Shown here one piece after another: positions 2,840-22,766 of a stretch of 64,000 nucleotides of DNA (the first letter of the stretch is position 1; each line of letters begins with the position of its first letter). The position numbers and the translations under genes are program-made. This DNA comes from Candidatus Omnitrophota bacterium (GTDB lineage Bacteria; Omnitrophota; Gorgyraeia; Gygaellales; Profunditerraquicolaceae), in assembly GCA_028716705.1 (NCBI GenBank), contig JAQUPI010000001.1, positions 65,614 through 129,613 on the forward strand, read 5' to 3'. A model generated the notes under the pieces. It saw only the letters and a list, made by a program, of their open reading frames with translations, did no database searches and was not told where the DNA came from.

Positions 2840-3453
2840 CAGGACTTGACGATATTAAGGTAAAGATAGCGCAAATGTCCAAGATACCGCTGGAAATGTG
2901 GCGGCTTACCTTCCGTGTATTCATGGAGCAGGACACCGACCTTATTTTGCAGATACTGGAAAAGGAATCCGGCTTGAACAAGCTCGAGGAACAACTTACC
3001 TCTGAATTGATCACGCTTGGCAGATCCTCCGGTAAATCGGAGAAGTCGATAATTACCGTTTACGCCGACATTGTGGGGGACCTTGAGATAATCGGTGATT
3101 ACTGCAAAGATATCCTGGAAAGGGTCCAGATAAAGATAGAAGAGAAGCTCCTTTTCAGCGATGACGCGGTGAAAGAATACAGCGACCTTTATCGCAAGAC
3201 CGAAAAGGCCATGGAAGACCTTGCTTTTGCCCTGGAAAAAGAGGATTATTGCTTATTAAAGAGGCTGTTAAAGAATGACAAAGAAATAGATAAGCTGGTA
3301 AATGAATACCGCGGGCGGCATAACCAGCGGCTCATAGAAGGGGTGTGCACGCCCTTCGCCTGCAATATGTTTTTAAATATGCTGGATTTTACGGCGTCTG
3401 TTTATCATCATGTTGACAGCATCGCTGAAAAATTAGTCAGGTTGGAAAAATGA
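2836..3453 (+). CDS. PhoU-domain protein (two PhoU-like helical repeats) embedded in hydrogenase operon
   Basis: Start MTGLDDIK at 2836 overlaps the large-subunit stop. Contains …DIVGDLEIIGDYCKDILERV… and …ASVYHHVDSIAEKLV…, resembling the two PhoU ERIGD-type repeats. The family assignment is tentative. Confidence 0.45.
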   Translation: MTGLDDIKVKIAQMSKIPLEMWRLTFRVFMEQDTDLILQILEKESGLNKLEEQLTSELITLGRSSGKSEKSIITVYADIVGDLEIIGDYCKDILERVQIKIEEKLLFSDDAVKEYSDLYRKTEKAMEDLAFALEKEDYCLLKRLLKNDKEIDKLVNEYRGRHNQRLIEGVCTPFACNMFLNMLDFTASVYHHVDSIAEKLVRLEK

Positions 3454-4844
3454 ACCCGGCGCTAGGCGCGATATCATTACCTATACTCGGGGCTTTTATC
3501 ATAAAAGCCTTTCCCAAAAAACATAAGCCTGGCCTTTCAGTTTTAACGCTTTTCGCCACATTCATACTCTGCCTTTTCGCTGTCCCGCCCGTGATCAAAT
3601 TCAAGGAGATCATTTTCCAAAAATACTTTACCGATTGGTTCAGCCTGTCTTTTGTCATTGATGGTTTAAGCGTGTTCATGGCCGGTGTCTCTTCCTTTGT
3701 CGCCCTTCTTATCGGCCTTTATTCTTTGGAATATATGAAGGAATACGCCGATAAGGATGAATTTTATTTCTGGACGCTCATTTTCGTGGGCGCCATGATG
3801 GGCCTGGTTTTCTCCTCCAACCTGATCCTTATATACTGTTTCTGGGAGGTCACCGCGGTATGTTCCTGGAAACTCATCGGCTTTTACAGGAAGGAGAAAG
3901 ACGCTAAGGCGGCGGATAGGGCGTTTTTAGTCACCTTTTTCGGCGCGTCATTAATGCTCTTGGGCATAGTTTTGATATATCTTGCCTATGGGACTTTGGA
4001 ATTATCCAATCTAAAGACCCAGGCTATAGGCAATTTATTCGCGTTTTTGCTGCTGGGAGGTATCATTTCAAAATCAGCGCAGCTTCCCTTGCATACCTGG
4101 CTTCCCGACGCGGGAGTCGCCCCTACGCCTGTAACCGCGCTTTTACACGCGGCGGTATTGGTAAAGATAGGAGTTTATGTCTTCGCCAGGCTTTTTTATC
4201 TTACATTCATCCCTACTCCGGTTTTTTTAAATTCAGTTATAGCTCTTTGCGCGATAACCATAGTAGTTGCCGGAGGCGCGGCGCTGGTTGAGAGCAATAT
4301 GAAGAGGATACTGGCTTACTCCACAGTAAGCCAGTTAGGTTATATCATCCTGGCCTTTTCTCTCGGGACGGACTTGGCTTTCAAAATGGCGATGTTGTAT
4401 ATCCTGGCGCACAGCCTGGCAAAAGCCGGCCTGTTTTTGTGCGCCGGCATAGTAGAGCATAAGACCGGCACCAAAGATATAAACGAGTTGGGCGGGCTTC
4501 TAAAGACCATGCCTTATACCGGCACCGCATACCTTTTATGCGCCTTTGCCATCATCGGCATCCCGCCGTTCCTTGGTTTCTGGCCTAAATTTATGACCGT
4601 GCTTTTTACCGTCCAACAGGGTCATCTGTGGGCGGGGATCCTTGCTATCGCCGGAGCTTTGTTCACTTTATTTTATCTTATGCGCTTATTTGACAGGGTA
4701 TTCCTTGGAGAGGTAAAGATCAAAGCAGCTGAAGAAAGCCGCTCATTAATGGTAACGGTTGTTTTAGCGCTTGGTATCTCTTCTTTATTGCTGGGCCTCG
4801 GGATAAAGTTTCCCTTGAATTTTTTGCAGGCGGTGGTCAGATAA
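3450..4844 (+). CDS. Mrp/complex I antiporter-like subunit (MrpD/NuoL-M-N family, MbhH-like)
   Basis: 464 aa polytopic. Carries the family signature WLPDAGVAPTPVTALLHAAVLVKIGVY. Confidence 0.8.
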   Translation: MNPALGAISLPILGAFIIKAFPKKHKPGLSVLTLFATFILCLFAVPPVIKFKEIIFQKYFTDWFSLSFVIDGLSVFMAGVSSFVALLIGLYSLEYMKEYADKDEFYFWTLIFVGAMMGLVFSSNLILIYCFWEVTAVCSWKLIGFYRKEKDAKAADRAFLVTFFGASLMLLGIVLIYLAYGTLELSNLKTQAIGNLFAFLLLGGIISKSAQLPLHTWLPDAGVAPTPVTALLHAAVLVKIGVYVFARLFYLTFIPTPVFLNSVIALCAITIVVAGGAALVESNMKRILAYSTVSQLGYIILAFSLGTDLAFKMAMLYILAHSLAKAGLFLCAGIVEHKTGTKDINELGGLLKTMPYTGTAYLLCAFAIIGIPPFLGFWPKFMTVLFTVQQGHLWAGILAIAGALFTLFYLMRLFDRVFLGEVKIKAAEESRSLMVTVVLALGISSLLLGLGIKFPLNFLQAVVR

Positions 4845-6730
4845 TGGAAATGAATTTGCATATATTGGTTGGTTTACCCCTGGTTTGCGGATTTGTCCTT
4901 TTTTTATTCAGAAATGAGAGATTGAATAAGAACCTGGCATTATTGGTACTGTTGTTAGGTTTTATCTGGTCCATAAATGCGGCGATAAGGCCGGCGCCTC
5001 AAAAGGCGATCGAACTCATCGGTAATTACAGCCTTATATTAGGATCAAACAGGCTTTCCGGATTGATCATCATTTTTGTGAATCTCTTCGGGCTGCTTAC
5101 ATGCCTTTATTCAAGAGACATGGAGAATAAGGGGGCGTTCTTTTCTTATCTTGCTTGGTTGATAGGTTTTTCCAACCTGGCGCTTTTATCCGCTGATTTT
5201 ATTACCTTTATCTTTTCCTGGGGCGCCACGCTCGCGCTGCTTTACGCGCTTTTAAATCTCGGATCCGGACGCAGCGCCAAAAAGGCTTTTTCTATTGTAG
5301 GGTTCGCCGATTTTTCCCTGATGCTCGGGGTATGCCTGTATATCGCCGTAACCAATAGCGCTGTCATGCCGCAGGGCCGCGGCTTGGCCCTGGACAACCC
5401 AATGGCCTGGTTTTCTTTTATCCTGATGCTTGTAGGCGCCTTTGCCAAGGCCGGATGCGCGCCGTTCCATACCTGGATAACCACGGCCGCGGAAGACGCG
5501 CCTGTGCCGGTAATGGCCATACTTCCCGGATCTCTGGATAAATTATTAGGTATATATCTGTTGGCGCGCGTCTCGGCGGATTTCTTCGTGCTCAATGGCG
5601 CGGCAATGGCGATATTGCTTCTTACGGGAGGCCTGACTATCATCTTCGCGGTAATGATGGCTTTGATACAGCATGATCTAAGGAAACTATTGTCCTTTCA
5701 CGCTGTCAGCCAGGTAGGTTACATGGTCCTCGGGTTCGGCACCGGTAATGCCCTGGGTTTCGCGGGCGGAATATTCCATATGATAAACAACGCCGTTTAT
5801 AAAAGCGGCTTATTTCTCGTAGGCGGAGCGGTGGAAAAGAGGAAAAAGACCTTCGAGCTGGAAGAGCTGGGAGGCCTGGCCGCGTATATGCCTTTGACCT
5901 TTATCTCCGGCCTGGTCTTTGCGTTATCCATATCCGGCATCCCTCCGTTGAACGGTTTCGCTTCCAAGTGGATGCTTTATCAGGGCGCGCTTTCGGGTAT
6001 GTTTAACACCCCCAATTCCTGGCTGCGCCTTACCTTTCTTTTCGCCATTATCGCCGCCATGTTCGGCAGCGCCCTTACCTTGGCCAGTTTTATTAAATTC
6101 ATCCATGCTATTTTCCTGGGGGAAGGCCGCGCCGAAAGAAAGGCGCAGCCTAAAGAGGTATCCTTTAGCATGGTGTTTCCTTTATTAATCCTGGCTTTGC
6201 TTTGCGTCCTTTTGGGCGTATTTCCCAAGTTATTCATTGGTAAACTCATTGAACCCTGGGTTGGGCAAGCGATCTCTTTTTCCGGCTCATGGGACAGTTT
6301 ATTTGTCTTTATCTTTCTCGCGGCCGGCTTAGCGGCGGGAGCTATAGTGTATTTTACCTACGCGAGTAAGGGCACGAGGCAGGACGGCGCTTATACCGGG
6401 TGCGAGACCGCTCCTCCTGAGCCGTCGTATCCCGCTACTGAATTTTATAAGACTATTCAGTCCATGCCCCTGGCAGGGAAATTCTATGGATTAATGAAAC
6501 AGGAAGCGCTGGATGTTTACAATATACTCTCCGGGATTTTGACTATCGCGGGGCGCTTGCTTTATATATTTATAGACCGCTTGATCTACGTTTTGACCAG
6601 CGCCGCCGGTTACAGCGTGCTGGGTTTAAGCTGGGTATTCAGGAAAATGCATTCGGGCGTTTTAGACCAGTATCTTGCCTGGAGCCTCGCGGGATTGCTC
6701 GCGATGTTTTTTATTTTAATGGCGAAATAA
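4844..6730 (+). CDS. Long Mrp/complex I antiporter-like subunit (MrpA/MrpD family) with C-terminal extension
   Basis: 628 aa polytopic. Divergent signature PFHTWITTAAEDAPVPVMAILPGS in the position of the WLPDA motif. ATGG overlap with the upstream gene. Confidence 0.7.
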   Translation: MEMNLHILVGLPLVCGFVLFLFRNERLNKNLALLVLLLGFIWSINAAIRPAPQKAIELIGNYSLILGSNRLSGLIIIFVNLFGLLTCLYSRDMENKGAFFSYLAWLIGFSNLALLSADFITFIFSWGATLALLYALLNLGSGRSAKKAFSIVGFADFSLMLGVCLYIAVTNSAVMPQGRGLALDNPMAWFSFILMLVGAFAKAGCAPFHTWITTAAEDAPVPVMAILPGSLDKLLGIYLLARVSADFFVLNGAAMAILLLTGGLTIIFAVMMALIQHDLRKLLSFHAVSQVGYMVLGFGTGNALGFAGGIFHMINNAVYKSGLFLVGGAVEKRKKTFELEELGGLAAYMPLTFISGLVFALSISGIPPLNGFASKWMLYQGALSGMFNTPNSWLRLTFLFAIIAAMFGSALTLASFIKFIHAIFLGEGRAERKAQPKEVSFSMVFPLLILALLCVLLGVFPKLFIGKLIEPWVGQAISFSGSWDSLFVFIFLAAGLAAGAIVYFTYASKGTRQDGAYTGCETAPPEPSYPATEFYKTIQSMPLAGKFYGLMKQEALDVYNILSGILTIAGRLLYIFIDRLIYVLTSAAGYSVLGLSWVFRKMHSGVLDQYLAWSLAGLLAMFFILMAK

Positions 6731-6731
6731 C

Positions 6732-7250
6732 ATGATAGAACTGCATATTGTATTGGTTTTGATGATCATCGGGGCGGTAGTGGCGACGGAGATCAATGAC
6801 CTGCTTTCCAGCGTTATTGCCCTGGGGGCGGTAGGTTTCGGGCTTACCCTGGAATTCTTATTATTACGCGCTCCCGACCTCGCGATCACCCAGTTAGTAG
6901 TGGAGATATTATCAGTGATCATCCTGATCAGGGCGACAATAGGGACAAAAATCTGCTGTGATCCGATAAAGACCAGGGCCGCGTATTTTGTTTTCGCGGC
7001 ACTTTTTACCGGGGCCTTCCTGGCGTTCAGTTACAGGGCGCTGGCGCAATTACCCGCTTTCGGGTCTCCTATCATGAAGATGGGCGCGCAGTATATACAG
7101 GAAGCAGCAGCGAAGACCGGCGCCGCGAATATTGTCTCATCAGTGATCTTGGATTTCAGGGCTTACGATACTTTGGGCGAAGCGACGATATTATTCACAT
7201 CCGTGATAGGGGTTTTAGCCGTCTTACGCTTAGCGGGAAGGAATAAATGA
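6732..7250 (+). CDS. Small membrane subunit with MnhB-type domain (MbhD/E-like)
   Basis: 172 aa hydrophobic. Contains …ALGAVGFGLTLEFLLLRAPDLAITQLVVEI…, resembling the MrpA C-terminal / MnhB N-terminal region. Confidence 0.5.
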   Translation: MIELHIVLVLMIIGAVVATEINDLLSSVIALGAVGFGLTLEFLLLRAPDLAITQLVVEILSVIILIRATIGTKICCDPIKTRAAYFVFAALFTGAFLAFSYRALAQLPAFGSPIMKMGAQYIQEAAAKTGAANIVSSVILDFRAYDTLGEATILFTSVIGVLAVLRLAGRNK

Positions 7251-7699
7251 AAGAAGCGGGGATGTCCTTAATCGTGAAACGGATCACCAAGATCACCGTA
7301 AGCCTGATATTTTTATACGGGGTATATATTGTCCTTCATGGGCATATCACTCCGGGAGGGGGGTTTGCCGGAGGCGTGATCATCGCGTTATCTTTTATCC
7401 ATCTTGTGCTCGCTTTCGGAAAGGAAGCGGCATTAAAGAGGCTGAATGAAACAGCGGTGTCAGCGATCGAATCCTTAGGCGGGCTGCTCTTCTGGGGCAT
7501 AGCCCTTTTGGGGCTTTTGGGCGGCGTCTTCTTTTTAAATATCCTGCCCAAAGGCCGGATTTTTCATCTATTCAGTTCGGGCACCATCGTCCTTTGCAAT
7601 ATAGCCATATTCCTTAAGGTAGGCGCCGGGCTTTTCGCGATCTTCATTGCCTTGGCGGCAATGCGGATGCCGGCGGAGAAAAAAGAAGGTAAAAAATGA
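7247..7699 (+). CDS. MrpB/MnhB-like subunit
   Basis: 150 aa with HGHITPGGGFAGGVI, the MnhB HxxPGGGFxGG motif. Confidence 0.65.
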   Translation: MKEAGMSLIVKRITKITVSLIFLYGVYIVLHGHITPGGGFAGGVIIALSFIHLVLAFGKEAALKRLNETAVSAIESLGGLLFWGIALLGLLGGVFFLNILPKGRIFHLFSSGTIVLCNIAIFLKVGAGLFAIFIALAAMRMPAEKKEGKK

Positions 7700-8034
7700 G
7701 CATTTATATACTTTGCCTGATATTGTTTGCCGTGGGTTTATACTGCCTTTTGGTAAAAAGGAACCTGATCAAGAAGATAGTCGGTTTGGGCATAATGGAA
7801 TACGCCGTTAACTTATTTTTTATACTTTTGGGTTACCGCCATAACGGCCAGGCGCCTATATTGGATAAAGAGCAGGCGATCGTCAATATGGTTGACCCGC
7901 TGCCCCAGGCGCTTATTCTTACGTCTATTGTTATCGGTTTAGGCGTAATGGCCTTGATGGTAGCGATCACCGTGCGCCTTTATGAGAAATACCGGACATT
8001 TGATATCGGCGAGATCCGCCGTTTAAAAGGATAA
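7696..8034 (+). CDS. MrpC/NuoK-like subunit
   Basis: 112 aa, three predicted TM segments. Start overlaps the upstream stop. Confidence 0.65.
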   Translation: MSIYILCLILFAVGLYCLLVKRNLIKKIVGLGIMEYAVNLFFILLGYRHNGQAPILDKEQAIVNMVDPLPQALILTSIVIGLGVMALMVAITVRLYEKYRTFDIGEIRRLKG

Positions 8035-8038
8035 GGTC

Positions 8039-9520
8039 ATGCTGCCTATTTTTGTGATTATACCGCTGGGATGCGCGTTCTTGATCCCTATCGCGTCTAA
8101 ATGGCGAAAAGGCTCCGCGCAGATTTTGGCGAATCTCGCCGGAGGGCTCCTCTTATTATTCTCGATCAAGAGCATTTTCTGGTTAAAAACAGGGATAAAA
8201 CTTTATTATCTCGGCGGGTGGAAACCGCCTTTCGGGATCGCCATGGCATTGGACGGGATGACCGTGCTCATGCTTATCGTAGTGAATTTGATCGGGTGTT
8301 TAGCCCTGGTATATTCGATAGATTACATAAAAAGGTATACTTCCCCCGCGCTTTATTACACTTTATTCTCTTTGCTGTTAGCCGGTTTAAACGGGGTAGT
8401 GGTCAGCGCGGATCTGTTCAACCTTTTCGTATTCCTTGAAATTACCTCTATCGCGAGCTACGCCCTGGTCGCTTTCGGAACAGAGGCGGAGGAATTGGAG
8501 GCTTCTTTCAAGTACCTGGTTTTAGGGAGCGTGGCTTCGATTCTGATCTTGCTGGCTATCGGCATGCTCCTGGGCAGCGTATCCACTCTGAACATGGCGG
8601 ATATCAGCCGTTCCCTGGCCGCTTCTTCATCCTCATCAAAAGATATCATACTCTATTGCACGGCATTATTTATTATGGGTTTCGGATTAAAGACGGCCCT
8701 GGTGCCTTTCCACGCCTGGCTCCCCGACGCCCATCCCGCGGCTCCGGCGCCGATGTCAGCCATGCTTTCAGGCGTGGTGATAAAGACGATCGGCGTATAT
8801 GCCCTTTGCAGGGTGGTCTTTAATATACTCGGCTTTACTCAGATGATTTCCTCCATATTCATATGGCTGGGCATAATCTCGATGCTGGTAGGCGTGCTGT
8901 TGGCCATAGGGCAGTGGGATTTTAAAAGATTGCTCGCTTACCATTCGATCAGCCAGATCGGTTATGTCATATTCGGCATAGGATTAGGGACTCCGTTAGG
9001 GATAATGGGGGGGCTGTTCCATCTCTTTAACCATTCTTTGTTCAAATCCCTTTTGTTCTTAAACGCCGGTTCCGTAGAATACTCGACGGGCACAAGGCAG
9101 TTGGAAAAATTAGGCGGGCTTTCGAAACAGATGCCTGTAACCAGCGCTACTTCATTGATCGCGTCTTTGTCGATCGCGGGCATACCTCCTTTTTGCGGAT
9201 TCTGGAGCAAGCTGGTCATTATTATCGCCGCGTTCCAGGCGAATAATATCGCCGGAGGCGTTGTCTGCGTCCTGGTGGGCATAATCACATTGGCTTCTTT
9301 TTTGAAGATCCAGAAGTATGTTTTTATCCGTAAAGTGGAAGAGGCGATGGCCGGAGTGAAGGAAGCGCCTTTATACATGCTTTTTTCTATGGCGGTATTA
9401 GCGGTTTTGTGCGTTGCCGCCGGTTTATTATTTCTGCCCTTTATGGATACGATCATAAAACCCGCGTCCGACGCCTTACTGGAAGGCTTGAATTACGCGG
9501 GGCTTATTTTGGGAACCTGA
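8039..9520 (+). CDS. MrpD/NuoN-like antiporter subunit
   Basis: 493 aa. Canonical FHAWLPDAHPAAPAPMSAMLSGVVIKTIGVYA motif. Confidence 0.85.
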   Translation: MLPIFVIIPLGCAFLIPIASKWRKGSAQILANLAGGLLLLFSIKSIFWLKTGIKLYYLGGWKPPFGIAMALDGMTVLMLIVVNLIGCLALVYSIDYIKRYTSPALYYTLFSLLLAGLNGVVVSADLFNLFVFLEITSIASYALVAFGTEAEELEASFKYLVLGSVASILILLAIGMLLGSVSTLNMADISRSLAASSSSSKDIILYCTALFIMGFGLKTALVPFHAWLPDAHPAAPAPMSAMLSGVVIKTIGVYALCRVVFNILGFTQMISSIFIWLGIISMLVGVLLAIGQWDFKRLLAYHSISQIGYVIFGIGLGTPLGIMGGLFHLFNHSLFKSLLFLNAGSVEYSTGTRQLEKLGGLSKQMPVTSATSLIASLSIAGIPPFCGFWSKLVIIIAAFQANNIAGGVVCVLVGIITLASFLKIQKYVFIRKVEEAMAGVKEAPLYMLFSMAVLAVLCVAAGLLFLPFMDTIIKPASDALLEGLNYAGLILGT

Positions 9521-9524
9521 TAAA

Positions 9525-10028
9525 ATGCGTTATATACGGTCGAGGGCCATTACTTTTACGGTTTCAATTTTACTCTGGCTGCTTTTATCCTTTAGCCTGG
9601 ATTGGCAGCATTTGCTCGTTGGGGCTTTCGCCGCTTTGCTTGTTGCCTGGATGATGGGAGACATGTTCGCCGGGCAGCCGGGAAAATGGCTGAGCCCGAG
9701 GCGCTATGGATGGTTCGCGTTTTATATGTTTGTGTTTGCCTGGGAATGCTTCAAGGCTAATATAGATGTGGCTTACAGGGTTTTAAGCCCGCGGTTACCT
9801 ATTAATCCCGGCATCGTTAAGGTAAAAACGACATTGAAGACCGAGACCGCTTTGACCTTTTTAGCTAACTTTATCACCCTGACACCCGGCACGTTCTCGG
9901 TGGATATAGAAAAAGAGAGCGGTTATATTTACATTCACTGGATAGACGTGAAGACACAAAATATAGAAGAAGCTTCAAGGATCATCGTTTCAAAATCCGA
10001 AAGGATCTTAAAAGAGGTATTTGAATGA
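9525..10028 (+). CDS. MrpE/MnhE-like subunit
   Basis: 167 aa. TLTPGT motif and the size expected for MnhE. Position in Mrp gene order. Confidence 0.65.
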   Translation: MRYIRSRAITFTVSILLWLLLSFSLDWQHLLVGAFAALLVAWMMGDMFAGQPGKWLSPRRYGWFAFYMFVFAWECFKANIDVAYRVLSPRLPINPGIVKVKTTLKTETALTFLANFITLTPGTFSVDIEKESGYIYIHWIDVKTQNIEEASRIIVSKSERILKEVFE

Positions 10029-10363
10029 GATCCATACGCTGGCTGGCAGGCTCGATAACACTGGTTTGCGCCCTGGTTTTTATATTCGGGGTCCTGAAAG
10101 CGGAGATGGCCACAAAATTGATGCTTTACTTGTTGATCTGCTTTTTCCTCTCTTTATACAGGATACTGAAGGGCCCGACGGCGGCAGACAGGTCGGTAGC
10201 AACGGACATACTCGGAATCCTGGTTATCGGCTTTTGCGCTATCCTTGCCGTTTATACCGGTAAAGGCTGGTATATAGATATCGCGATCGCCTGGGCGCTG
10301 CAGAGTTTTATCGGCACCCTGGCTTTGGCAAAGTTCCTGGAAGGAAGGCATTTTGATGAATGA
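10025..10363 (+). CDS. MrpF/MnhF-like subunit
   Basis: 112 aa with ILKGPTAADR (the MnhF GPTxxDR motif). Confidence 0.6.
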   Translation: MRSIRWLAGSITLVCALVFIFGVLKAEMATKLMLYLLICFFLSLYRILKGPTAADRSVATDILGILVIGFCAILAVYTGKGWYIDIAIAWALQSFIGTLALAKFLEGRHFDE

Positions 10364-10682
10364 GACGGCCTCTTTAGTTTTTATTTTGGTAGGCATAAGC
10401 TTCGACCTGTTCGGCTGTATAGGGTTGATCAGGCTCCCTGATGTCTATAACAGGCTGCAGGCTTCCACTAAATGCGTGACCTTAGGGACATGCGGCATAC
10501 TTTTCGGCGTTTTCTTGAGGTTAGGGTTTTCCGCCGGGGGAGTTAAAGCCCTCATCTGCATTGTTTTCGTTTTGCTAACCGCTCCCGTTGCCGCGCACGC
10601 TTTAGCCAAAGGCGCGCACAAGTATGGAGTGAAGCTTTGGGAGAGATCGGTTTGCGATAAATATACCGAGGATAAGAAATAA
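10353..10682 (+). CDS. MrpG/MnhG-like subunit
   Basis: 109 aa with RLPDVYNRLQASTKCVTLGT (the MnhG motif). Confidence 0.65.
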   Translation: MMNETASLVFILVGISFDLFGCIGLIRLPDVYNRLQASTKCVTLGTCGILFGVFLRLGFSAGGVKALICIVFVLLTAPVAAHALAKGAHKYGVKLWERSVCDKYTEDKK

Positions 10683-10684
10683 CT

Positions 10685-11284
10685 ATGAAGTACCCAAAAC
10701 TTAGAGAGTTAAGAGAAGCGATTAGGGCGCTGATAAGAGGGCCCTACACTTCCAAGTTCCCTCACCAGCCGCATAAACCCTTTGAAAGGTTCAGGGGCAG
10801 GTCTGAGTTCCACGAGAAAGACTGCGTGGGATGCAGCGCCTGTTTCAATGTCTGCCCGGCAAGGGCGATCGAAATGAGCGATGTGGGCAGAAAACGCGTC
10901 CTGACCGTCCGTTGGGACCTATGCATATTCTGCGGGCAGTGCCAGGCAAACTGCATAACGGGAAAAGGCATCATGCTTTCCAATGATTTTGAATTATCCA
11001 CGACCGGGCAGAGAAATGAGCTGCGGCAGACCATAGAAAAGGAATTCGCCGTCTGCGATTCCTGCGGCGATAATATCGTGCCTCTTGACCATATATTGTG
11101 GGTAGCCAAAAAGATCGGCCCGCTTTGTTTTAGCAACCCGTCGCTTATAGTGTTTTATTTAAGGACAATGGACCTTTCCGCGAAAGAGAAATTCCCGCCA
11201 AAAGAAGAATTTGAATTTAACCGTCCCGACCGTATAAAGATTCTCTGCCCGAGATGCAGGCGAGAAGCTGTGATCAAATCCTAA
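10685..11284 (+). CDS. NuoI/MbhN-like ferredoxin subunit (2x[4Fe-4S]) with extra Cys-rich C-terminal tail
   Basis: CVGCSACFNVCP and CIFCGQCQANC cluster motifs. The C-terminus adds CDSC…CPRC (a possible zinc-ribbon). Confidence 0.75.
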   Translation: MKYPKLRELREAIRALIRGPYTSKFPHQPHKPFERFRGRSEFHEKDCVGCSACFNVCPARAIEMSDVGRKRVLTVRWDLCIFCGQCQANCITGKGIMLSNDFELSTTGQRNELRQTIEKEFAVCDSCGDNIVPLDHILWVAKKIGPLCFSNPSLIVFYLRTMDLSAKEKFPPKEEFEFNRPDRIKILCPRCRREAVIKS

Positions 11285-13676: not shown

Positions 13677-13684
13677 TGATTTCA

Positions 13685-13713
13685 AAATCCCAACTTTTTT
13701 GTTGGGATTTTTT
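13685..13713 (+). terminator. Intrinsic terminator (likely riboswitch expression platform)
   Basis: aaatcccaac-tttttt-gttgggattt followed by a T-run, 27 nt upstream of the GTG start at 13740. Confidence 0.7.
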
Positions 13714-13739
13714 ATTTTAAGGTGTTATAATAAAAAACA

Positions 13740-15713
13740 GTGGACCCGATAACCAAAGAAAACATACTTCAGGAGATCCCCTTATTCACCGGCCTTGTTG
13801 CCGGCCAGCGCCTCATTATCTCCCAGCGCAGTTCCCTCAAAGAGTATAAAAAAGGGCAGATCATTTACCAGGAAGGCTCAGCCGGAGAGGCGTTTTATAT
13901 CGTGGTTCTGGGCAGGGTTATAATCTATACGCAGGATGCCCGGGGTAACGAGTCGCCGCTGGAATATCTGCACAGGGGTAAATATTTCGGTATCATTTCA
14001 CTGCTTACCGGGGATTCGCATTCGGTAAGCGCGAAAGCCGTAAATGACTGCCTGTTATTGATCATCAACAGGGAAGATTTTGATTTTATCCTTAAGGAGA
14101 TCCCTGGCTTAGCCATTGACTTAAGCCGGACTTTGTCCCGTCGGTTAAAACGCAAGGATATCCATCAAAAGATTATCTTCGAAAGCGCGGCTATTTCTAT
14201 ATTCAGTTCATATTCAAGGGCAGGCAAGACGGTTTACGCCCTGAATTTGGCTTTAAGCCTGGCAAAAGAGACGCGTAAATCAGTGATCATCTTGGATATC
14301 CTTCCCCAGGGTAAAACCTACAGCCTCCCCCGCCGTCTGGGTATCGCCGGAGTTTACCCGGTTTTTGAGCTTTCCGTTTTAGAAAGGGTTAACCCTCAAG
14401 GCATAGGTGAATTCCTGCTTAAGGACAATTTCGGCATAGATATGGCCGCCCTTTCATATAATCCCGGGGATAAATTGACGCTCAGAAGGCTAACCGACCT
14501 GTTAAGTTTACTGGTTAACGATTACCATTATATAATCCTCGACCTGCCCAGCGACATGGATAGGAATATCCTGGAGATGCTTAACCAATCGGACCTGATC
14601 CATGTTTTGACCAGCCCCGAAGAAATAGACCTTAAAAGGACGGCTAATTTGATCGCCAGGCTCAAGGCGGATTTTAACTTTCATGAAGATAAAATAAAGG
14701 TGATCATTAATGAATATAAAGAATCAAAACTCCGGCATAAACAACAAACAGACCTGTTGAACCAGCCCATTTTCGCCACCCTCCCGAAGATAGGTTTCAG
14801 CTCTTCGGATAAGATGGTATTGGACGAACCTGAATGCGAATACGCGAGGGCGGTAAGAAGGATGGCCCGAAAACTAAGCGATTCCCAGGTGGGATTGGCC
14901 TTGGGCGTGGGCGTTGCTTACGGTTTTTGCCACATAGGCGTCCTGAAGGTAATAGAAGAAGAGAAGATCCCCATTGATGTGATCTCCGGCTCTAGTGTGG
15001 GAGCGCTTATCGCCAGCCTATGGGTCACAGGCAAGTCAAGCGCGGAGATACTTGAGATCACCAGGGAATTCAAAGGGCCAAAAAACATATGGGGGATCAT
15101 AGACCTGACATTTCCGATCCTGGGTTTTATTAAAGGCAATAAGCTTTACAGGATCCTGAAAAAGCATTTAGGCGCGAAGACGTTTTATGACGTAAAGCTG
15201 CCGCTTAAGATCGTAGCCAGCGACGTAAAGAGAAAAGAGCCGATAGTTTTCGAGAGCGGCCTGCTTGTGGACGCGATAATGGCCAGCTGCTCGATGCCGG
15301 GAGTATTCGCGCCTTTCCGGCTTAAACAGGGCTTTCTCTTTGACGGCGGAGTGATCAACCCCCTGCCCACTGAGCCTTTATTTGCGATGGGAGTAAAAAA
15401 GATCATCGCCGTAAACGTCACTCCTTCCAGGGAGGACGTGCTTAAGCAATATGAAAAAATAAAAGGCGCGGAGCCTACCGGGAAGCCTCAAAATAAGCTC
15501 AAAACTAATATACTCGATATTATCTTCAGCAGTATTGAAATATTGCAGTCCGAAGTAGCCGGAAAAGAAGCGCAACTGGCCGATGTCGTTTTGCATCCGG
15601 ACACATCCGGGCTTTATTGGCTGGAGCTTCACCGGGCAAAGGAATTCGCCGAAAGAGGGGAAGAAGAGGCGCGCAGGAACCTGAACAGGATATGGCAGGT
15701 GATCAACGAATAA
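13740..15713 (+). CDS. Three-domain protein: N-terminal cyclic-nucleotide-binding domain, central degenerate ParA/MinD/CpaE-like P-loop domain, C-terminal patatin-like phospholipase
   Basis: GTG start. Residues ~10-130 form a CAP_ED-like beta-roll (…GQIIYQEGSAGEAFYIVVLGRV…). Residues ~150-370 carry a deviant Walker A (SSYSRAGKT) and a hhhhD Walker B (YIILDLPSD). The C-terminal patatin domain has GVGVAYGFCHIGVLK (oxyanion), GSSVG (GxSxG) and DGGVINPLP (catalytic Asp). Confidence 0.75.
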   Translation: MDPITKENILQEIPLFTGLVAGQRLIISQRSSLKEYKKGQIIYQEGSAGEAFYIVVLGRVIIYTQDARGNESPLEYLHRGKYFGIISLLTGDSHSVSAKAVNDCLLLIINREDFDFILKEIPGLAIDLSRTLSRRLKRKDIHQKIIFESAAISIFSSYSRAGKTVYALNLALSLAKETRKSVIILDILPQGKTYSLPRRLGIAGVYPVFELSVLERVNPQGIGEFLLKDNFGIDMAALSYNPGDKLTLRRLTDLLSLLVNDYHYIILDLPSDMDRNILEMLNQSDLIHVLTSPEEIDLKRTANLIARLKADFNFHEDKIKVIINEYKESKLRHKQQTDLLNQPIFATLPKIGFSSSDKMVLDEPECEYARAVRRMARKLSDSQVGLALGVGVAYGFCHIGVLKVIEEEKIPIDVISGSSVGALIASLWVTGKSSAEILEITREFKGPKNIWGIIDLTFPILGFIKGNKLYRILKKHLGAKTFYDVKLPLKIVASDVKRKEPIVFESGLLVDAIMASCSMPGVFAPFRLKQGFLFDGGVINPLPTEPLFAMGVKKIIAVNVTPSREDVLKQYEKIKGAEPTGKPQNKLKTNILDIIFSSIEILQSEVAGKEAQLADVVLHPDTSGLYWLELHRAKEFAERGEEEARRNLNRIWQVINE

Positions 15714-15726
15714 ATAGGGAGGCCTA

Positions 15727-16209
15727 ATGATGTTCAAAGCTCGATCTTTGAAGCTCAGGGAAGTCCTGATCATATGTTTTTTAATTTCTAATCTCACCGG
15801 CTGCGCGACCATAATAGAATCCTGCAAGGGTTTGGCCGGAGTTTCCACGCGCTCGGTAGAGGACGCGCGGAAAAACGCGATAAAAAAGGCTTATAATTAT
15901 GATTATTCTTCCTGCGTTTCCCAGGTAAGGGACATACTTAAGGGGATAAGATCGTACATTTACGCCGATAATGGAAGGAAACAAATGATCGCCGTATATT
16001 TATCCGAGGAGGATACTACCCCGGTTGGAATATTTTTTAAAGAAATAGACCCGAAGAGCACGCAGGTAGAGGTTTCTTCTCCGAGCACTTACGCCAAAGA
16101 GTTTATTTCTGGGAAGATATCCGATGTTTTGGAGAAAAAGATCACCCTTGAAGAATTGGAGGCCGAAATAAATGCGAAAAGAAAAGAAGACGATAGCGAA
16201 ACTGATTAA
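15727..16209 (+). CDS. Lipoprotein of unknown function
   Basis: RBS GGAGG, signal peptide with lipobox LTGC, 160 aa. No recognised domain. Confidence 0.5.
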   Translation: MMFKARSLKLREVLIICFLISNLTGCATIIESCKGLAGVSTRSVEDARKNAIKKAYNYDYSSCVSQVRDILKGIRSYIYADNGRKQMIAVYLSEEDTTPVGIFFKEIDPKSTQVEVSSPSTYAKEFISGKISDVLEKKITLEELEAEINAKRKEDDSETD

Positions 16210-16480
16210 CGAATGCCACGGCATCGCTAAAGAAAAAGGCTGGTGGGAGAGCGAACGTAATGATGGAGAGCTCATCGCGCTTATGCACTCTGAATTGTCC
16301 GAAGCCCTTGAGGCGATGCGCAGCCACGGGACAAAAGATAATATCGCCGAAGAATTAGCGGACTGCTGTATCCGCATCTTCGATTATTGCGGGGCCAGGG
16401 GAATCGACCTGGAAAAAATGCTGGTTAAGAAGATCGAATATAATAAGACCCGTCCTTACCGGCACGGGAAGAAGTTTTAA
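16172..16480 (+). CDS. Small MazG-like nucleotide pyrophosphohydrolase (all-alpha NTP-PPase)
   Basis: 102 aa. …GWWE…HSELSEALEA… and …EELADCCIRIFDYC… fit the MazG EExxE / EExxD metal-binding helices. 5' end overlaps the upstream lipoprotein gene by 38 nt. Confidence 0.6.
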   Translation: MRKEKKTIAKLINECHGIAKEKGWWESERNDGELIALMHSELSEALEAMRSHGTKDNIAEELADCCIRIFDYCGARGIDLEKMLVKKIEYNKTRPYRHGKKF

Positions 16481-16546
16481 TGAGCACGCAACTTATGGAA
16501 CGAGTGTTTAGTTAACGGGATAAAGAAGTTCAACATAGGAGGAAAA

Positions 16547-16780
16547 ATGCCGTACGACAGCAACTTGGATGAGCAATTATTCAATAAGGCCTGGGAAGAT
16601 GAAGGTGGCAAGATCATTGTCAGTGTACATTCATATAATAAGGGCCAGAAAAAACTGCAGATCGCCAGGGAGATCAAAGATAAGATGGGTAACGCCGCTT
16701 TTGCCAAACTGGGCAGGCTTTCAAAAACCGAGATCAAGGGGATCTTGCCTTTGATCCAGGAAGCGCTGGAGGTAATGTAA
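16547..16780 (+). CDS. PC4/YdbC-like small ssDNA-binding protein (tentative)
   Basis: Strong RBS AGGAGG. 77 aa. …SVHSYNKGQKKLQIAREIKDKMG… resembles the YdbC/PC4 WNGRPPKLDIREW core. Confidence 0.45.
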   Translation: MPYDSNLDEQLFNKAWEDEGGKIIVSVHSYNKGQKKLQIAREIKDKMGNAAFAKLGRLSKTEIKGILPLIQEALEVM

Positions 16781-16820
16781 CCGGCAAATTGCCTTGCAAA
16801 AGGATTTAAAGGCGATATAA

Positions 16821-18395
16821 TTGGGAAAGATGGGATCAAAAAGAAGGGATAACTGGGGTTCTCGCTTGGGCGTGATCATGGCAGTGGCCGGGTCAGCCAT
16901 AGGCTTAGGGAATTTCCTGAGATTTCCCGCTAAAGCCGCATCCAACGGCGGGGGCGCCTTCATGATCCCATATTTTATTTCCCTGTTATTGTTGGGTATC
17001 CCGCTTATGTGGATAGAATGGACGCTGGGCCGTTACGGCGGAGGTTTTGAGCATGGCACGGCGCCGGGCATATTCCATAGTGTCTGGCAGAAGAACCGTT
17101 TCATCAAATATTTCGGCGTAATCGGGATATTCGGACCCCTCGTCATATTCATATATTACACTTATATCGAATCCTGGACCCTGGCTTACAGCGTCTTTTC
17201 CCTGGCCGGTAAATACGTAAATTTGGCGGACCAGGCCTCGATGCAGGGGTTCTTGAGAGGATTCCAGGGGCTAGAGCATAACCAGTATTTTAACGGTATC
17301 GGGCCGGCTTATTTATTTTTTCTGCTTACTTTTGCCGTAAATACTTGCGTGATATATTACGGGATAAAAGGCGGAATAGAGCGGCTTTGCAAATGGGCAA
17401 TGCCGCTTTTATTTATTTTCGGATTGCTCTTGTTATTCAGGGTTTTTACCCTGGGTACGCCGGATTCGGCAAGGCCTGAATGGAATATCTTGAACGGTTT
17501 TGGGTTCCTTTGGAACCCCGATTTTTCCGCGTTAAAGTCAGCGAAGGTCTGGCTTGAGGCGGCGGGGCAGATATTCTTTACCTTAAGCGTGGGCATAGGG
17601 GTAATACTTACTTACGCGAGTTATTTGTCCAAAGGAGACGACGTAGTCCTTTCGGGATTGACCGCTTCCAGCACGAATGAAATGACCGAGGTTATTTTAG
17701 GCGGAAGTATCATTATTCCCGCGGCCTTTGTTTTCTTCGGCCCTGTGGACATCCAATCCATCGCGCGTTCCGGGGTATTCAACCTGGGGTTTGTGACCAT
17801 GCCCTTGGTTTTGAATAAATTGCCATTGGCGCAGATCCTGGGATTTATCTGGTTTTTTCTTTTGTTCCTGGCGGGTATAACCTCTTCTGTTTCCCTTGCC
17901 CAGCCTGCGGTCGCGTTTTTGGAGGACGAGTTTGACATAAATAGAAAGAAAGCGGTCATTATTTTCGGCGCCGTTTGTTTTTTGCTCTGCCAGCCGGCGA
18001 TCTTCTTTTTAGGCAACGGCGTCGTGGATGAATTGGATTTCTGGGGAGGGACTTTCTTTTTAGTTTTATTCGCTACGATCGAAACCATACTCTTCGCCTG
18101 GGTCTTCGGCATGGAAAAGGCTTGGGATGAGATCCATCGCGGCGCGGACATGCGCGTGCCGCGGATTTATAAGTTTATTATCAAGTACATTACGCCTTTA
18201 TTCTTGCTCTTTATTTTAGGTATGTGGTTGTGGCAGGAGTGGCTGCCGATCATTTTCATGAAAAACGTGTCTCCCCAAAGTAAGCCTTTTATTCTAGGCA
18301 CCAGGTTAGGCCTGCTGTTCATCTTTGTCACGTTGGGAGTATTGGTAAAGATCGCGTGGGGAAGAAAAAGGGCGCAATTAGAGAGGGCTAGATGA
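16821..18395 (+). CDS. Sodium-dependent transporter, NSS (SNF) family
   Basis: …NWGSRLGVIMAVAGSAIGLGNFLRFP… is the NSS N-terminal signature. About 12 TM. Confidence 0.8.
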   Translation: MGKMGSKRRDNWGSRLGVIMAVAGSAIGLGNFLRFPAKAASNGGGAFMIPYFISLLLLGIPLMWIEWTLGRYGGGFEHGTAPGIFHSVWQKNRFIKYFGVIGIFGPLVIFIYYTYIESWTLAYSVFSLAGKYVNLADQASMQGFLRGFQGLEHNQYFNGIGPAYLFFLLTFAVNTCVIYYGIKGGIERLCKWAMPLLFIFGLLLLFRVFTLGTPDSARPEWNILNGFGFLWNPDFSALKSAKVWLEAAGQIFFTLSVGIGVILTYASYLSKGDDVVLSGLTASSTNEMTEVILGGSIIIPAAFVFFGPVDIQSIARSGVFNLGFVTMPLVLNKLPLAQILGFIWFFLLFLAGITSSVSLAQPAVAFLEDEFDINRKKAVIIFGAVCFLLCQPAIFFLGNGVVDELDFWGGTFFLVLFATIETILFAWVFGMEKAWDEIHRGADMRVPRIYKFIIKYITPLFLLFILGMWLWQEWLPIIFMKNVSPQSKPFILGTRLGLLFIFVTLGVLVKIAWGRKRAQLERAR

Positions 18396-18492
18396 CCCCC
18401 GGTGGATGGACCTTTCTGTTAATATCATGGGGATTGATTTTGGGGTTGGCCGGTTTTTGTTTCTTCAGGGTTTTCTCAAAAAAGGAATTAAA

Positions 18493-18867
18493 ATGAAAAA
18501 GATCATTCTTTGTTCGGCTCTTTGTTTCTTAACCATGAACTTAGGCTGCGCGCCTTTGATCATAGGAGGGGCGGTAGGCGCGCTCGGAGGTTACGCCGCC
18601 AGCAAGGATACTATTGAAGGCCATACTGATAAAGGGTATGACAATCTCTGGCGTTCAGCCCTCACGGTGGCCAGGATCCGCGGGCAGGTAAGAGAGGAAG
18701 ACAGAGTAAGAGGCTATATTGAATTAGAAGCGGAATCCAGCCGTGTTTATATCCGGATCGTAAGGCTTACAGCCGCTACTACCAGGATCAGGGTATCCGC
18801 CCGCAAATATCATCTGCCTAATTTAGCTTTGGCCCAGGACATATATGTTAAGATCATGGAGCAATAA
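18493..18867 (+). CDS. Lipoprotein of unknown function
   Basis: MKKIILCSALCFLTMNLGCAP signal with lipobox, 124 aa. The upstream in-frame extension from 18406 lacks an RBS. Confidence 0.5.
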   Translation: MKKIILCSALCFLTMNLGCAPLIIGGAVGALGGYAASKDTIEGHTDKGYDNLWRSALTVARIRGQVREEDRVRGYIELEAESSRVYIRIVRLTAATTRIRVSARKYHLPNLALAQDIYVKIMEQ

Positions 18868-18868
18868 G

Positions 18869-19597
18869 ATGACCCAGGCGCCTTCCAACATATACAGGCA
18901 AGCAGCCAATTTTGTTACCATCTCAAGCCTTGTATGCGGATTTAGTTCCATAATCTTCTGCATTGAAGGGCATTTTACCTTTGCCTCATGGGCGATAATT
19001 TTGTCCGTTCTCCTGGACGGGTTGGACGGCCAGCTCGCGAGGAAAAATCCCGTACCCAGCGAATTCGGAAAGGAGCTGGACTCACTGGTTGACGTGGTCA
19101 GCTTCGGGATAGCCCCGTCGATGCTCGGCTACATCTTTATTTACAGGGATTTTTATTTCTCGGCGACCCTGGCCCTTTTTTATTATCTGTTTTGCAGCGT
19201 AATGCGCCTGGCAAAATACAATATTACGCCTAAAGAGAAACTGGTTAATTATTTCTACGGCCTTCCCACTACCGTCGGCGGAGGAATTTTAGCTTCATTT
19301 ATCCTGATATTCAGGAAGGGCAAAGATATATCTCCGCTTCCGAAATTCGTTCCGTCAATATTCCTGCTTATGGTTTTGGTCCTGGCCTTTCTGATGGTTT
19401 CCCGTGTCAGATATTTAAACCTGGACGCCTTGAAACAACTGCTGGCGAGGAAAATAAGGTTAACCATAGCGGTTTTATCGGTTTTATTAGTCCTTGCCTT
19501 ATTGCTGAGAAAAGCGGGCGTCTTCATATTCGCGTTATTCTTAATTTACTTGCTTTTTTCCCCGTTTGTGGTAAAAAGATTAAATAATACAGGTTAG
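18869..19597 (+). CDS. pssA: CDP-alcohol phosphatidyltransferase (phosphatidylserine synthase-like)
   Basis: …LDGLDGQLARK… matches the D-G-x2-A-R family motif. Multi-TM. Start MTQAPSN sits right after the upstream stop. Confidence 0.7.
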   Translation: MTQAPSNIYRQAANFVTISSLVCGFSSIIFCIEGHFTFASWAIILSVLLDGLDGQLARKNPVPSEFGKELDSLVDVVSFGIAPSMLGYIFIYRDFYFSATLALFYYLFCSVMRLAKYNITPKEKLVNYFYGLPTTVGGGILASFILIFRKGKDISPLPKFVPSIFLLMVLVLAFLMVSRVRYLNLDALKQLLARKIRLTIAVLSVLLVLALLLRKAGVFIFALFLIYLLFSPFVVKRLNNTG

Positions 19598-21545: not shown

Positions 21546-22766
21546 ATGATGAAATTTCCGAAAGATTTCCTTTGGGGGGCGGCGACAAGCGCTTACCAGG
21601 TCGAAGGCAACAATAAAAACAGCGATTGGTGGGAATGGGAAAGCTCCTCCGGGAAAGAGCGTTCGGCAGAGGCCTGCAGGCATTATCAATTTTACGAGCA
21701 GGACTTTGACCTCGCGAAAGGATTAAACCATAATGCCCACCGCCTCTCCATCGAATGGAGCCGCATTGAACCTGAAAAGGGGAAATTTTCGGAAAGCGAA
21801 CTGGGGCATTATCTTGACGTCATTACCTCCCTTAAGAAACGCGGTATCGAGCCGTTGGTTACGCTGCATCATTTTACTAACCCGCTTTGGCTAAGCAGGT
21901 CGGGAGGATGGGCAAGCAGGCGGGCCATCGCGGCATTCTTACGTTACTGCAATTTTATTGTTCCCGCGCTCGCTAAACATGTCCGTTATTGGTTTACCAT
22001 AAACGAACCTAATGTCTATGTTTATCACGCCTATATTTTGGGGGTATGGCCTCCTCAGAAAAAGTCTTATTTTAAGGCCAAGGCGGCGGAGGGCAATCTT
22101 CTCCGGGCGCATATTAAGGCCTACCGCTTGATATATAAAATCTACAGGCGTTCAAAGCTCGCTGTGCCTAATGTCAGTTTTGCCCATAACACCATGTCTT
22201 TCGTTCCCTGTACGCGGAGATTGAAAGACCGGCTTGCCGCCAGGCTGAGAGATAATTGGTATAATTTCGGGCCGCTGAATAAAGTTATTAAGCGCAAGGC
22301 CCTGGATTTTATCGGTATAAATTATTATTCCAGGCAGTTGGTTGACTTGAAAAAGTGGGGGATACGGAACCTGGCTGTGGACACATGCGATAAAAACCAC
22401 CATCCCGTAAAAAAGAACTCTTTGGGCTGGGATATTTATCCGCAAGGCCTGTACGAGCTGCTCTTAAAGCTTAGAAAATACAACCTGCCTGTAATTATCA
22501 GCGAAAACGGGATCTGTACGCAAGACGATAATTTACGCTGGGAGTATATTCATGAGCACCTTAAACATATCCATATGGCCATGAATAAGGGCGCCGAGGT
22601 GCGGGGATATCTTTACTGGTCGCTTTTGGACAATTTTGAGTGGGACAAGGGTTTTGGCCCGAGGTTCGGCCTTATTCATGTGGATTACGATAGTTATAGA
22701 AGGACGGTGAAGGAAAGCGCCAGGAAATTGGCGGAGGTAAGCAAAACCGGCTATTTAGCCGTATGA
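21546..22766 (+). CDS. Glycoside hydrolase family 1 beta-glucosidase
   Basis: FLWGAATSAYQVEGN, NHNAHRLSIEWSRIEP, TINEPNVY (acid/base Glu) and ISENG (nucleophile Glu) motifs. Confidence 0.85.
   Translation: MMKFPKDFLWGAATSAYQVEGNNKNSDWWEWESSSGKERSAEACRHYQFYEQDFDLAKGLNHNAHRLSIEWSRIEPEKGKFSESELGHYLDVITSLKKRGIEPLVTLHHFTNPLWLSRSGGWASRRAIAAFLRYCNFIVPALAKHVRYWFTINEPNVYVYHAYILGVWPPQKKSYFKAKAAEGNLLRAHIKAYRLIYKIYRRSKLAVPNVSFAHNTMSFVPCTRRLKDRLAARLRDNWYNFGPLNKVIKRKALDFIGINYYSRQLVDLKKWGIRNLAVDTCDKNHHPVKKNSLGWDIYPQGLYELLLKLRKYNLPVIISENGICTQDDNLRWEYIHEHLKHIHMAMNKGAEVRGYLYWSLLDNFEWDKGFGPRFGLIHVDYDSYRRTVKESARKLAEVSKTGYLAV

Follow-up and report, generated by a model that had tools for sequence, protein, structure and literature searches.

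A stretch of 64,000 nucleotides (nt) from contig JAQUPI010000001.1 of a Candidatus Omnitrophota bacterium (the window, which here always means the whole of that stretch) is ordinary chromosome and carries on its forward strand a gene for a protein of 657 amino acids (aa) in which three domains follow one another: an N-terminal sensor of the cyclic nucleotide-binding (CNB) fold, a middle domain of the MinD/ParA type, and a C-terminal patatin-like acyl hydrolase (Table 1). The open reading frame (ORF) starts with GTG, and the N-terminus given by this start, MDPITKENILQEIPLF, agrees with the consensus of its homologues. Positions are numbered on the whole 64-kb window and residues on the window protein. 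No transmembrane segment was found in the window protein, the highest 19-residue Kyte-Doolittle mean (1.85) lying at the Gly-rich loop of the patatin domain; judged from its sequence, the protein is soluble and cytoplasmic. The subject of this analysis is the middle domain, which is retained across a wide family of such fusion proteins while the motifs of its ATPase site decay.

According to profile searches and a predicted structure, residues 148–384 are a genuine MinD/ParA-fold (SIMIBI) domain. The Pfam family CbiA, the nucleotide-binding domain of CobQ/CobB/MinD/ParA, matches aa 152–350 (E 3.7e-8; 33.8 bits against a gathering cutoff of 25.4), with AAA_31 as a supporting match (E 2.7e-5), and the NCBIfam model of archaeal MinD (minD_arch) aligns aa 152–381 to its positions 3–232 of 251 (E 3.3e-8). 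A phmmer search of the PDB with the middle domain returned 3ea0, ParA (8ray), Aquifex MinD (4v02/4v03), Soj, VpsO, and CapB-type kinases (E 5e-5 to 0.2); a designed repeat protein that topped this list was rejected as an artefact of summed repeats. AlphaFold2 (AF2), applied to aa 143–385 alone with an alignment of 61 sequences (23–69% identity), gave a model with a pLDDT of 91.2, a pTM of 0.90, and the alternating pattern of strands and helices expected of this fold. When the model was compared with the PDB by Foldseek, the top entries belonged exclusively to the MinD/ParA class (probability 1.00); the best was a ParA-family ATPase of C. tepidum (3ea0, E 1.6e-13), and the others included MinD of four organisms (TM-score 0.74–0.77), FlhG, Soj, ParA, and FleN, then NifH-type proteins (E 1e-13 to 1e-9 and TM-score 0.70–0.77 for 3ea0, MinD, FlhG, Soj, and ParA).

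An earlier note on this DNA, made from the letters alone, had proposed a ParA/MinD-type fold at this place and had named the lack of a P-loop profile match, or the prediction of an unrelated fold, as grounds for giving the proposal up; the searches returned P-loop families and the prediction returned the MinD fold. The two motifs that it quoted, SSYSRAGKT and YIILDLPSD, are exact, and its description of the domain as inserted between sensor and lipase is fair for the order of CNB, middle, and patatin domains found by Pfam. It was right that a domain lies there, but the interval that it gave, 13875–15250, corresponds to aa 46–504 and overruns both flanking domains, the true extent being 14181–14891.

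A homologue search with the window protein found 792 sequences; figures given here for the window's own clade refer to the best 120 of these, which are full-length proteins of 65–77% identity from Candidatus Omnitrophota metagenome-assembled genomes (MAGs). The canonical motif of ParA/MinD proteins is the one named “deviant Walker A,” with a signature lysine and KGGxxK[S/T] as its hallmark (PMC11407121). When the GKT of the window protein is aligned with that of unfused TadZ-like proteins (S-x-K-G-G-x-G-K-T), Tyr158 falls at the position of the signature lysine and Ser157, Ser159, and Arg160 at glycine positions, and neither KGG nor GKGG occurs anywhere in the translated window protein; the classical P-loop residues Gly162-Lys163-Thr164 are kept. 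In the clade the loop follows the pattern F-S-S-[Y/H]-S-x-A-G-K-[T/S], with Ser156, Ser157, Gly162, and Lys163 unchanged in all 120 homologues, Tyr158, Ser159, and Thr164 conserved at 93–94%, and position 158 occupied by Tyr or His without exception. The first switch-I Asp (Asp186) is found in 116 of the 120, and the second Asp of the TadZ-like switch-I motif “DLDLxFGDV” is lost (the window reads VIILDILPQG). Asp268, Leu269, and Pro270 of the Walker B strand and Asn324 are unchanged, Asn169 (the Asn after the P-loop helix) is unchanged or nearly so, and five tyrosines (Tyr158, Tyr166, Tyr262, Tyr326, and Tyr368) are conserved. Asn324 occupies what we take to be the position of the base-contacting Asn or Arg that follows a β-strand in MinD-type proteins, and by this analogy it may contact adenine. 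The constraint on SSYSxAGK[TS] suggests that the domain still binds a phosphate-bearing ligand in this clade, most simply ATP or ADP; some Verrucomicrobiia, whose loop is SSISGAGKT (S-x-x-x-G-A-GKT), suggest by their sequence that the same holds for them.

The wider fusion family was analysed in an alignment of 52 full-length three-domain proteins (30–77% identity), 45 of which are distant representatives. When the 229 windows of the domain are ranked by column entropy, the P-loop 9-mer comes 6th within the window's own clade and 109th in the distant members, and across the 52 sequences no residue of the middle-domain P-loop is conserved at 90% or more. In the 45 distant members the column of the Walker A Lys holds Lys in 14, Arg in 11, and another residue in 20, so that the P-loop Lys is lost in about 70% of distant lineages; GK[ST] is intact in 13 and broken in 32, just three have Lys at the signature position, and the loops that have lost the motif read, for example, FQSDIT, AQQERS, PEINSR, and YREDQA. 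Asp268 is retained in 35 of these proteins, Asp186 in 32, and Asn324 in 11. When retention of GK[ST] was compared with retention of Asn169, Asp186, Asp268, and Asn324 in the distant members, three of the four comparisons trended as expected and none was significant (Fisher p 0.14 to 1.0).

The positions of the middle domain that are conserved at 90% or more in the 52 sequences lie outside the P-loop: Leu170, Leu174, Glu177, Leu269, Gln283, Asp285, Leu348, and Tyr368, together with Arg377, which is invariant. Invariant columns are also those of the CNB glycines and of the patatin catalytic apparatus, where Gly385, Gly391, Ser419, Gly421, Asp535, and Gly536 are unchanged in 52 of 52. Mean entropy is higher in the middle domain (2.58) than in CNB (2.01) or patatin (1.66), which makes it the most variable of the three; its best-conserved windows in the distant members are the last helix (aa 372–380), the Walker B strand (second in conservation family-wide), the QSD strand, and the helix that follows the P-loop. 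The opposite pattern would be expected, from sequence conservation, of a P-loop NTPase that is catalytic. Decay of an active site within an architecture that is kept is the mark of a pseudo-enzyme with a scaffold or regulatory role.

The last helix of the middle domain (aa 366–381) contains the window that is most conserved in the distant members (aa 372–380; H 1.44), including Arg377, with Tyr368 nearer its start. It is basic and amphipathic, with a hydrophobic moment (μH) of 0.90, the highest in the protein. The AF2 model shows it as helical (H225–238 of the domain model), as the helix with which this fold normally ends, and it abuts the patatin domain directly, running into patatin strand 1.

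An exhaustive HMMER search of 1.84 billion cluster representatives with the middle domain alone gave 955 matches at E ≤ 1e-3. About 60 of the best 150 representatives consist of CNB, middle, and patatin domains in 630–710 aa, with middle-domain identity down to ~25%. The next-best matches after this fusion family are proteins of ~380–420 aa (E 1e-12 to 1e-9) in which the homologous domain spans aa ~140–380; these nearest unfused relatives have neither CNB nor patatin, carry the canonical S-x-KGG-x-GK-T, and consist of an N-terminal response-regulator receiver and a MinD-like domain, with sub-threshold NCBIfam matches to the CpaE homologue Ssd. The gene of the top unfused relative (P0174) lies between RcpC and the genes for a T2SSE ATPase and two T2SSF proteins (TadA/TadB/TadC); with a prepilin peptidase (Peptidase_A24) and TadE upstream, this is a complete tad locus, which makes genuine TadZ/CpaE proteins the closest kin of the middle domain.

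Among free-standing proteins TadZ/CpaE is thus the nearest homologue of this domain, with which it shares the MinD fold, and it resembles the front of the window protein in having a ~140-aa N-terminal regulatory-type domain before a MinD-like domain at aa ~145–385. TadZ itself has a degenerate Walker A and is seen as a localisation or scaffold protein rather than a motor (PMC11407121; bioRxiv 10.64898/2026.07.08.737194), its Walker-like A consensus being K/RGGxGxS/T (bioRxiv 10.64898/2026.07.08.737194). The two differ in the direction of decay: TadZ has lost the P-loop Lys but not the signature Lys, and the window protein has Tyr158 in place of the latter and keeps GKT. They also differ in their surroundings, since TadZ has an atypical receiver domain, no C-terminal enzyme, and a tad locus around it, whereas the window protein has CNB and patatin domains; none of the ORFs annotated between 1646 and 22766 is a T2SSE, T2SSF, RcpC, or TadE gene. 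The remaining claims of the earlier note can be placed against this comparison. Its observation that the KGGxGK[ST] lysine signature is replaced and that GKGG is absent is correct, and its preference for a pseudo-ATPase over a catalytic ATPase agrees with the loss of both lysines in most distant members beside invariant patatin residues. The likeness to CpaE/TadZ that it drew holds for kinship but not for the degeneracy, which is the mirror image of that in TadZ; and in speaking of a deviant Walker A it recognized a degenerate motif but used a term that denotes the canonical ParA/MinD motif, from which this loop has reverted to a near-classical xxxxxGK[ST]. Its suggestion that the module might dimerise the lipase or bring it to a membrane is a conjecture.

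The taxonomic spread of the family was assessed by a scan of species-representative genomes with domain mapping. Proteins with all three domains were found in many Omnitrophota, in Verrucomicrobiia (loci L024 and L025), in Ca. Vecturithrix (L033), in MAGs that bear the label Planctomycetia, and in one Lindowbacteria representative. Some Omnitrophota (L031, L032, L034–L036) have a two-domain form of ~500 aa, made of middle and patatin domains without CNB, in which the P-loop is fully degenerate and the Walker B Asp is replaced by Asn; in Chloroflexota (L037, L038, L082) the proteins, of 559–578 aa, consist of CNB, a ~150-aa linker on which Pfam is silent, and patatin. Pfam matched cNMP_binding and Patatin in all 52 aligned three-domain members, AAA_31 in 32, and CbiA in 14, and it missed the middle domain wholly in the most degenerate lineages. 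Close homologues are named “NTE family protein” (JGI) or “patatin-like phospholipase family protein” (NCBI), labels that overlook the middle domain of the fusion family. Literature searches found no publication on the CNB–ParA–patatin architecture or on an Omnitrophota patatin.

Table 1. Coordinates of the three-domain gene, its domains, and its motifs in the window.
Feature	Residues (aa)	Position (nt)	Strand	Evidence
Whole gene; three-domain protein (CNB sensor, putative MinD/TadZ-like pseudo-ATPase, patatin hydrolase)		13740..15713	+	ORF, Pfam
N-terminal CNB-fold sensor	~10–142	13767..14165	+	Pfam cNMP_binding aa 34–119, E 5.7e-21, 74.7 bits
Middle MinD/ParA-fold domain (~237 residues)	148–384	14181..14891	+	CbiA, minD_arch, PDB phmmer, AF2, Foldseek
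Degenerate Walker A/P-loop, SSYSRAGKT	156–164	14205..14231	+	Translation
Switch-I/Walker A′ strand, VIILD (Asp186)	182–186	14283..14297	+	Motif alignment
Walker B strand, YIILDLPSD (Asp268)	264–272	14529..14555	+	Translation
IINEY (Asn324)	322–326	14703..14717	+	Alignment
Last helix of middle domain, CEYARAVRRMARKLSD	366–381	14835..14882	+	Conservation, hydrophobic moment, AF2
C-terminal patatin-like acyl hydrolase	385–657	14892..15710	+	Pfam Patatin aa 386–547, E 2.2e-28, 100 bits
Patatin Gly-rich oxyanion loop	385–395		+	G385, G391, G395
Patatin GxSxG (G417-S-S419-V-G421), Ser419	417–421	14988–15002	+	Alignment
Patatin Asp535-Gly-Gly (D535-G536-G537)	535–537	15342–15350	+	Alignment

In the N-terminal sensor, the phosphate-binding cassette (13986–14039, aa 83–100) is non-canonical. 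PDB alignments place its sequence, FGIISLLTGDSHSVSAKA, against “FGELALL..PRAAT.KA” of PKA/PKG, with Ile85 at the position of the Glu that binds the ribose (2′-OH) and His94 at that of the Arg that binds the cyclic phosphate; in the wide family His94 is kept in at least 90% of the sequences, and on these substitutions the CNB ligand may be other than cAMP or cGMP. The best NCBIfam match of the patatin domain is of the RssA type (E 2.3e-30), under the cutoff of that model. A CNB domain followed by a patatin esterase with a Ser-Asp dyad is also the layout of NTE/PNPLA6-type and bacterial NTE-family proteins; these differ in having no P-loop domain between sensor and esterase, and the window cassette has Ile/His instead of the canonical Glu/Arg.

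Upstream of the lipase gene, at 1646–11284, lies an MBH/Mrp-type membrane-bound hydrogenase or antiporter cluster (Complex1_49kDa/NiFeSe large subunit, three Proton_antipo_M, MbhD/E, MnhB, MNHE, and a 4Fe-4S protein), in which an ORF with a PhoU domain (2779–3453) is embedded. Genes for an MFS transporter, a peptidoglycan-binding protein, and a small membrane protein stand between this cluster and the lipase gene. A strong terminator-like hairpin (13684–13711; 11-bp stem, T tail) overlaps a promoter-like site (13702–13731; TATAAT preceded by a TG) whose end lies just 9 nt short of the GTG at 13740, and the leader is therefore very short or absent if the site is real. The downstream block (15727–19597) opens with a gene for a 160-aa lipoprotein, 13 nt past the stop, followed by a MazG-like ORF of 102 aa (16172–16480) that overlaps it by 38 nt, and then by genes for an SNF-family Na+ symporter, a second lipoprotein (153 aa; its counterpart in locus L001 is a DUF3568 gene), and a CDP-alcohol phosphatidyltransferase. 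Neither of the two small lipoproteins of the window matched a Pfam family. Relatives of at least 56% identity (L001, L003–L012) keep this gene order. A GH1 glycoside hydrolase gene lies ~6 kb 3′ of the lipase gene in the window (21546–22766) and immediately upstream of it in L001 (4769–5998), a difference that indicates local rearrangement within the clade.

Elsewhere in the family, β-oxidation genes directly adjoin the three-domain gene (L013, L014, L018–L022, L024–L026, L085, L086) or lie directly upstream of the two-domain form (L032, L035, L036). They encode thiolase, 3-hydroxyacyl-CoA dehydrogenase, enoyl-CoA hydratase, acyl-CoA dehydrogenase, and FadD-type acyl-CoA synthetase, and where such a gene is found 3′ of the lipase gene the gap is 10–60 nt; at one further locus GpsA lies downstream of the lipase gene. 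This adjacency recurs across Omnitrophota, Verrucomicrobiia, and Lindowbacteria, which speaks for an enzyme that feeds fatty acids or 3-hydroxyacids to β-oxidation. The role of the family, as read from domains and neighbours, is probably regulated lipolysis rather than defence or virulence; for the window's own clade that role is an extrapolation, because the 64-kb window contains no fad genes.

The explanation that we favor, with moderate confidence, is that the middle domain stems from the TadZ/CpaE branch, was recruited into a ligand-regulated patatin lipase, and no longer acts as an ATP-hydrolysing switch. Binding of a ligand to the CNB domain would be relayed to the lipase through the MinD-fold module, which would serve as a structural or regulatory bridge, probably as a stable dimer platform; MinD-fold proteins generally dimerise (PMC11407121). 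The last helix (aa 366–381) is a candidate for the relay into the patatin domain, although its basic face might alternatively contact anionic lipid. In the window's own clade, the domain most likely still binds ATP or ADP, hardly turning it over if at all, as a ligand with a structural or allosteric part that possibly reports the energy state of the cell, and at the level of the family the released fatty acids would go to β-oxidation.

Several observations weigh against this explanation. The conservation of GK[TS], Asp186, Asp268, and Asn324 in the clade would also fit a slow but real ATPase or a kinase, and the CNB cassette lacks the canonical Glu and Arg. Full-length AlphaFold prediction from a shallow alignment of 47 sequences gave a pLDDT of 68 and a pTM of 0.40, with the patatin part badly modelled; because this model is poor, we infer the contacts of the middle domain with sensor and lipase from conservation alone. 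The link to β-oxidation is lacking in the window and its close clade, whose conserved neighbours are different ones (lipoprotein, MazG-like protein, SNF transporter, CDP-alcohol phosphatidyltransferase). A more far-reaching version, which we regard as possible but on the unlikely side, is that of a self-positioning or energy-sensing lipase, in which a TadZ-derived module that binds but does not hydrolyse adenine nucleotide would, together with the non-canonical CNB sensor, control dimerisation and recruitment of the patatin to a membrane, the cell pole, or a lipid-storage surface, with the lipolysis that feeds β-oxidation gated by both ligand and energy state.

Two other explanations would leave the middle domain catalytically active. 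It could be a working MinD/ParA switch, with ATP driving dimerisation of the lipase and its binding to a membrane or other matrix and hydrolysis resetting it. With MinD, FlhG, and Soj/ParA the domain does share its fold, a Walker B of the form hhhhD-x-P, the switch-I Asp, Asn169, and GK[ST]; in the clade GK[TS], Asp268, Asp186, and Asn324 are invariant or nearly so, the P-loop ranks among the best-conserved windows, Verrucomicrobial members keep S-x-x-x-G-A-GKT, and the last helix has the basic, amphipathic character already described. Against this, the hallmark signature lysine of these ATPases (PMC11407121) has become Tyr or His at position 158, the second switch-I Asp is gone, and GK[ST] is broken in 32 of 45 distant representatives of the same architecture. 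The domain is also internal, with no free C-terminus on which a membrane-targeting helix or DNA-binding patch of the MinD/ParA kind could lie, and no candidate gene for a MinE- or ParB-like partner was found among the conserved neighbours in the window or at the distant loci, the conserved downstream genes of the clade being those for lipoproteins and a transporter. On balance an active switch is unlikely. A second catalytic role, that of a P-loop kinase like the bacterial tyrosine kinases (BY-kinases) that phosphorylates the lipase or itself, is highly improbable. BY-kinases have a loop of the form [ST]-S-x-x-P-x-x-GK[ST], a Walker A′ of the form DxDxR, a C-terminal Tyr cluster, and a Wzz-type activator. 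The P-loop of the window protein, without a signature lysine, resembles that loop; several Tyr are conserved in the clade, NCBIfam models of the XrtA-associated tyrosine autokinase (E 2.1e-6, aa 132–187) and eps_fam (E 5.7e-4) match weakly and locally, and structures of VpsO and CapA/B were matched at E 1.6e-3 to 0.02. But over the whole domain the similarity is highest to TadZ/MinD-type proteins, with the autokinase matches local and far under cutoff; DxDxR is absent (VIILDILPQG), the domain is followed by patatin instead of a Tyr cluster, no Wzz-type activator domain is present, and in most of the family the P-loop is unconstrained.

The remaining alternatives concern what the lipase does rather than whether the middle domain turns over ATP. 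As a Pycsar/CBASS-type abortive-infection effector, the protein would bind an infection-made cyclic nucleotide through its CNB domain and attack the cell's own membrane through its patatin domain, with the middle domain serving to oligomerise it. In CBASS (CapV) and Pycsar, too, a second-messenger sensor controls a membrane-damaging or NADase effector, and this sensor-plus-killer layout fits; CapV is not known to have a CNB domain, and the modules known in Pycsar effectors are transmembrane or TIR ones rather than patatin. PADLOC gave weak matches at the level of domains, to phospholipase effectors (E 1e-9 to 4e-6) and, for the CNB part, to PycTIR and TIR effectors (E 1.6e-7 to 2e-4), and NCBIfam gave weak ones to an anti-phage phospholipase and a CBASS lipase, but all of them are far under the family cutoffs. 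Such an effector is very unlikely here, as no nucleotide cyclase gene is adjacent in the window or at L001 and L083–L086 and there is no defence-island context; moreover, the gene is conserved vertically (65–77% identity, with housekeeping synteny across Omnitrophota), distant members of the family adjoin β-oxidation rather than defence genes, and the CNB cassette lacks the cyclic-phosphate Arg and the Glu. A metabolic alternative, decidedly unlikely in our estimation, is that the hydrolase acts not on membrane phospholipid but on granules of storage polyester (polyhydroxyalkanoate, PHA; polyhydroxybutyrate, PHB) or neutral lipid, on which the MinD-like domain tethers or positions it. The thiolase, dehydrogenase, and hydratase genes beside distant members equally make up a short-chain 3-hydroxybutyryl-CoA pathway, a patatin-like protein of Haloferax, PhaZh1, has been cited as a PHA depolymerase (PMC4823750), and ParA/MinD proteins are known to position protein-based organelles (PMC11407121). 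Among the loci examined, though, none showed a gene for a PHA synthase or a phasin, the window offers no support for granules, and the FadD-type long-chain acyl-CoA synthetase genes at L024, L025, and L086 favor fatty acids.

The protein thus joins three known folds in a new combination, and pseudo-ATPase relatives of MinD are already known in TadZ/CpaE; the finding adds this combination to known domain families and does not overturn current understanding. ParA/MinD proteins are known as free-standing positioning ATPases that work with partners, and here the fold is built permanently into a lipase. Were the self-positioning lipase true, it would be the first case of a ParA/MinD-family domain that regulates a metabolic enzyme in cis. 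The family, in which the ATPase signature decays while the architecture stays, offers a clean natural case of the passage from P-loop NTPase to pseudo-enzyme scaffold. It is common throughout Omnitrophota, very small bacteria that form a phylum still little understood, and its link to β-oxidation gives it a concrete role that can be tested, the signal-gated release of fatty acids.

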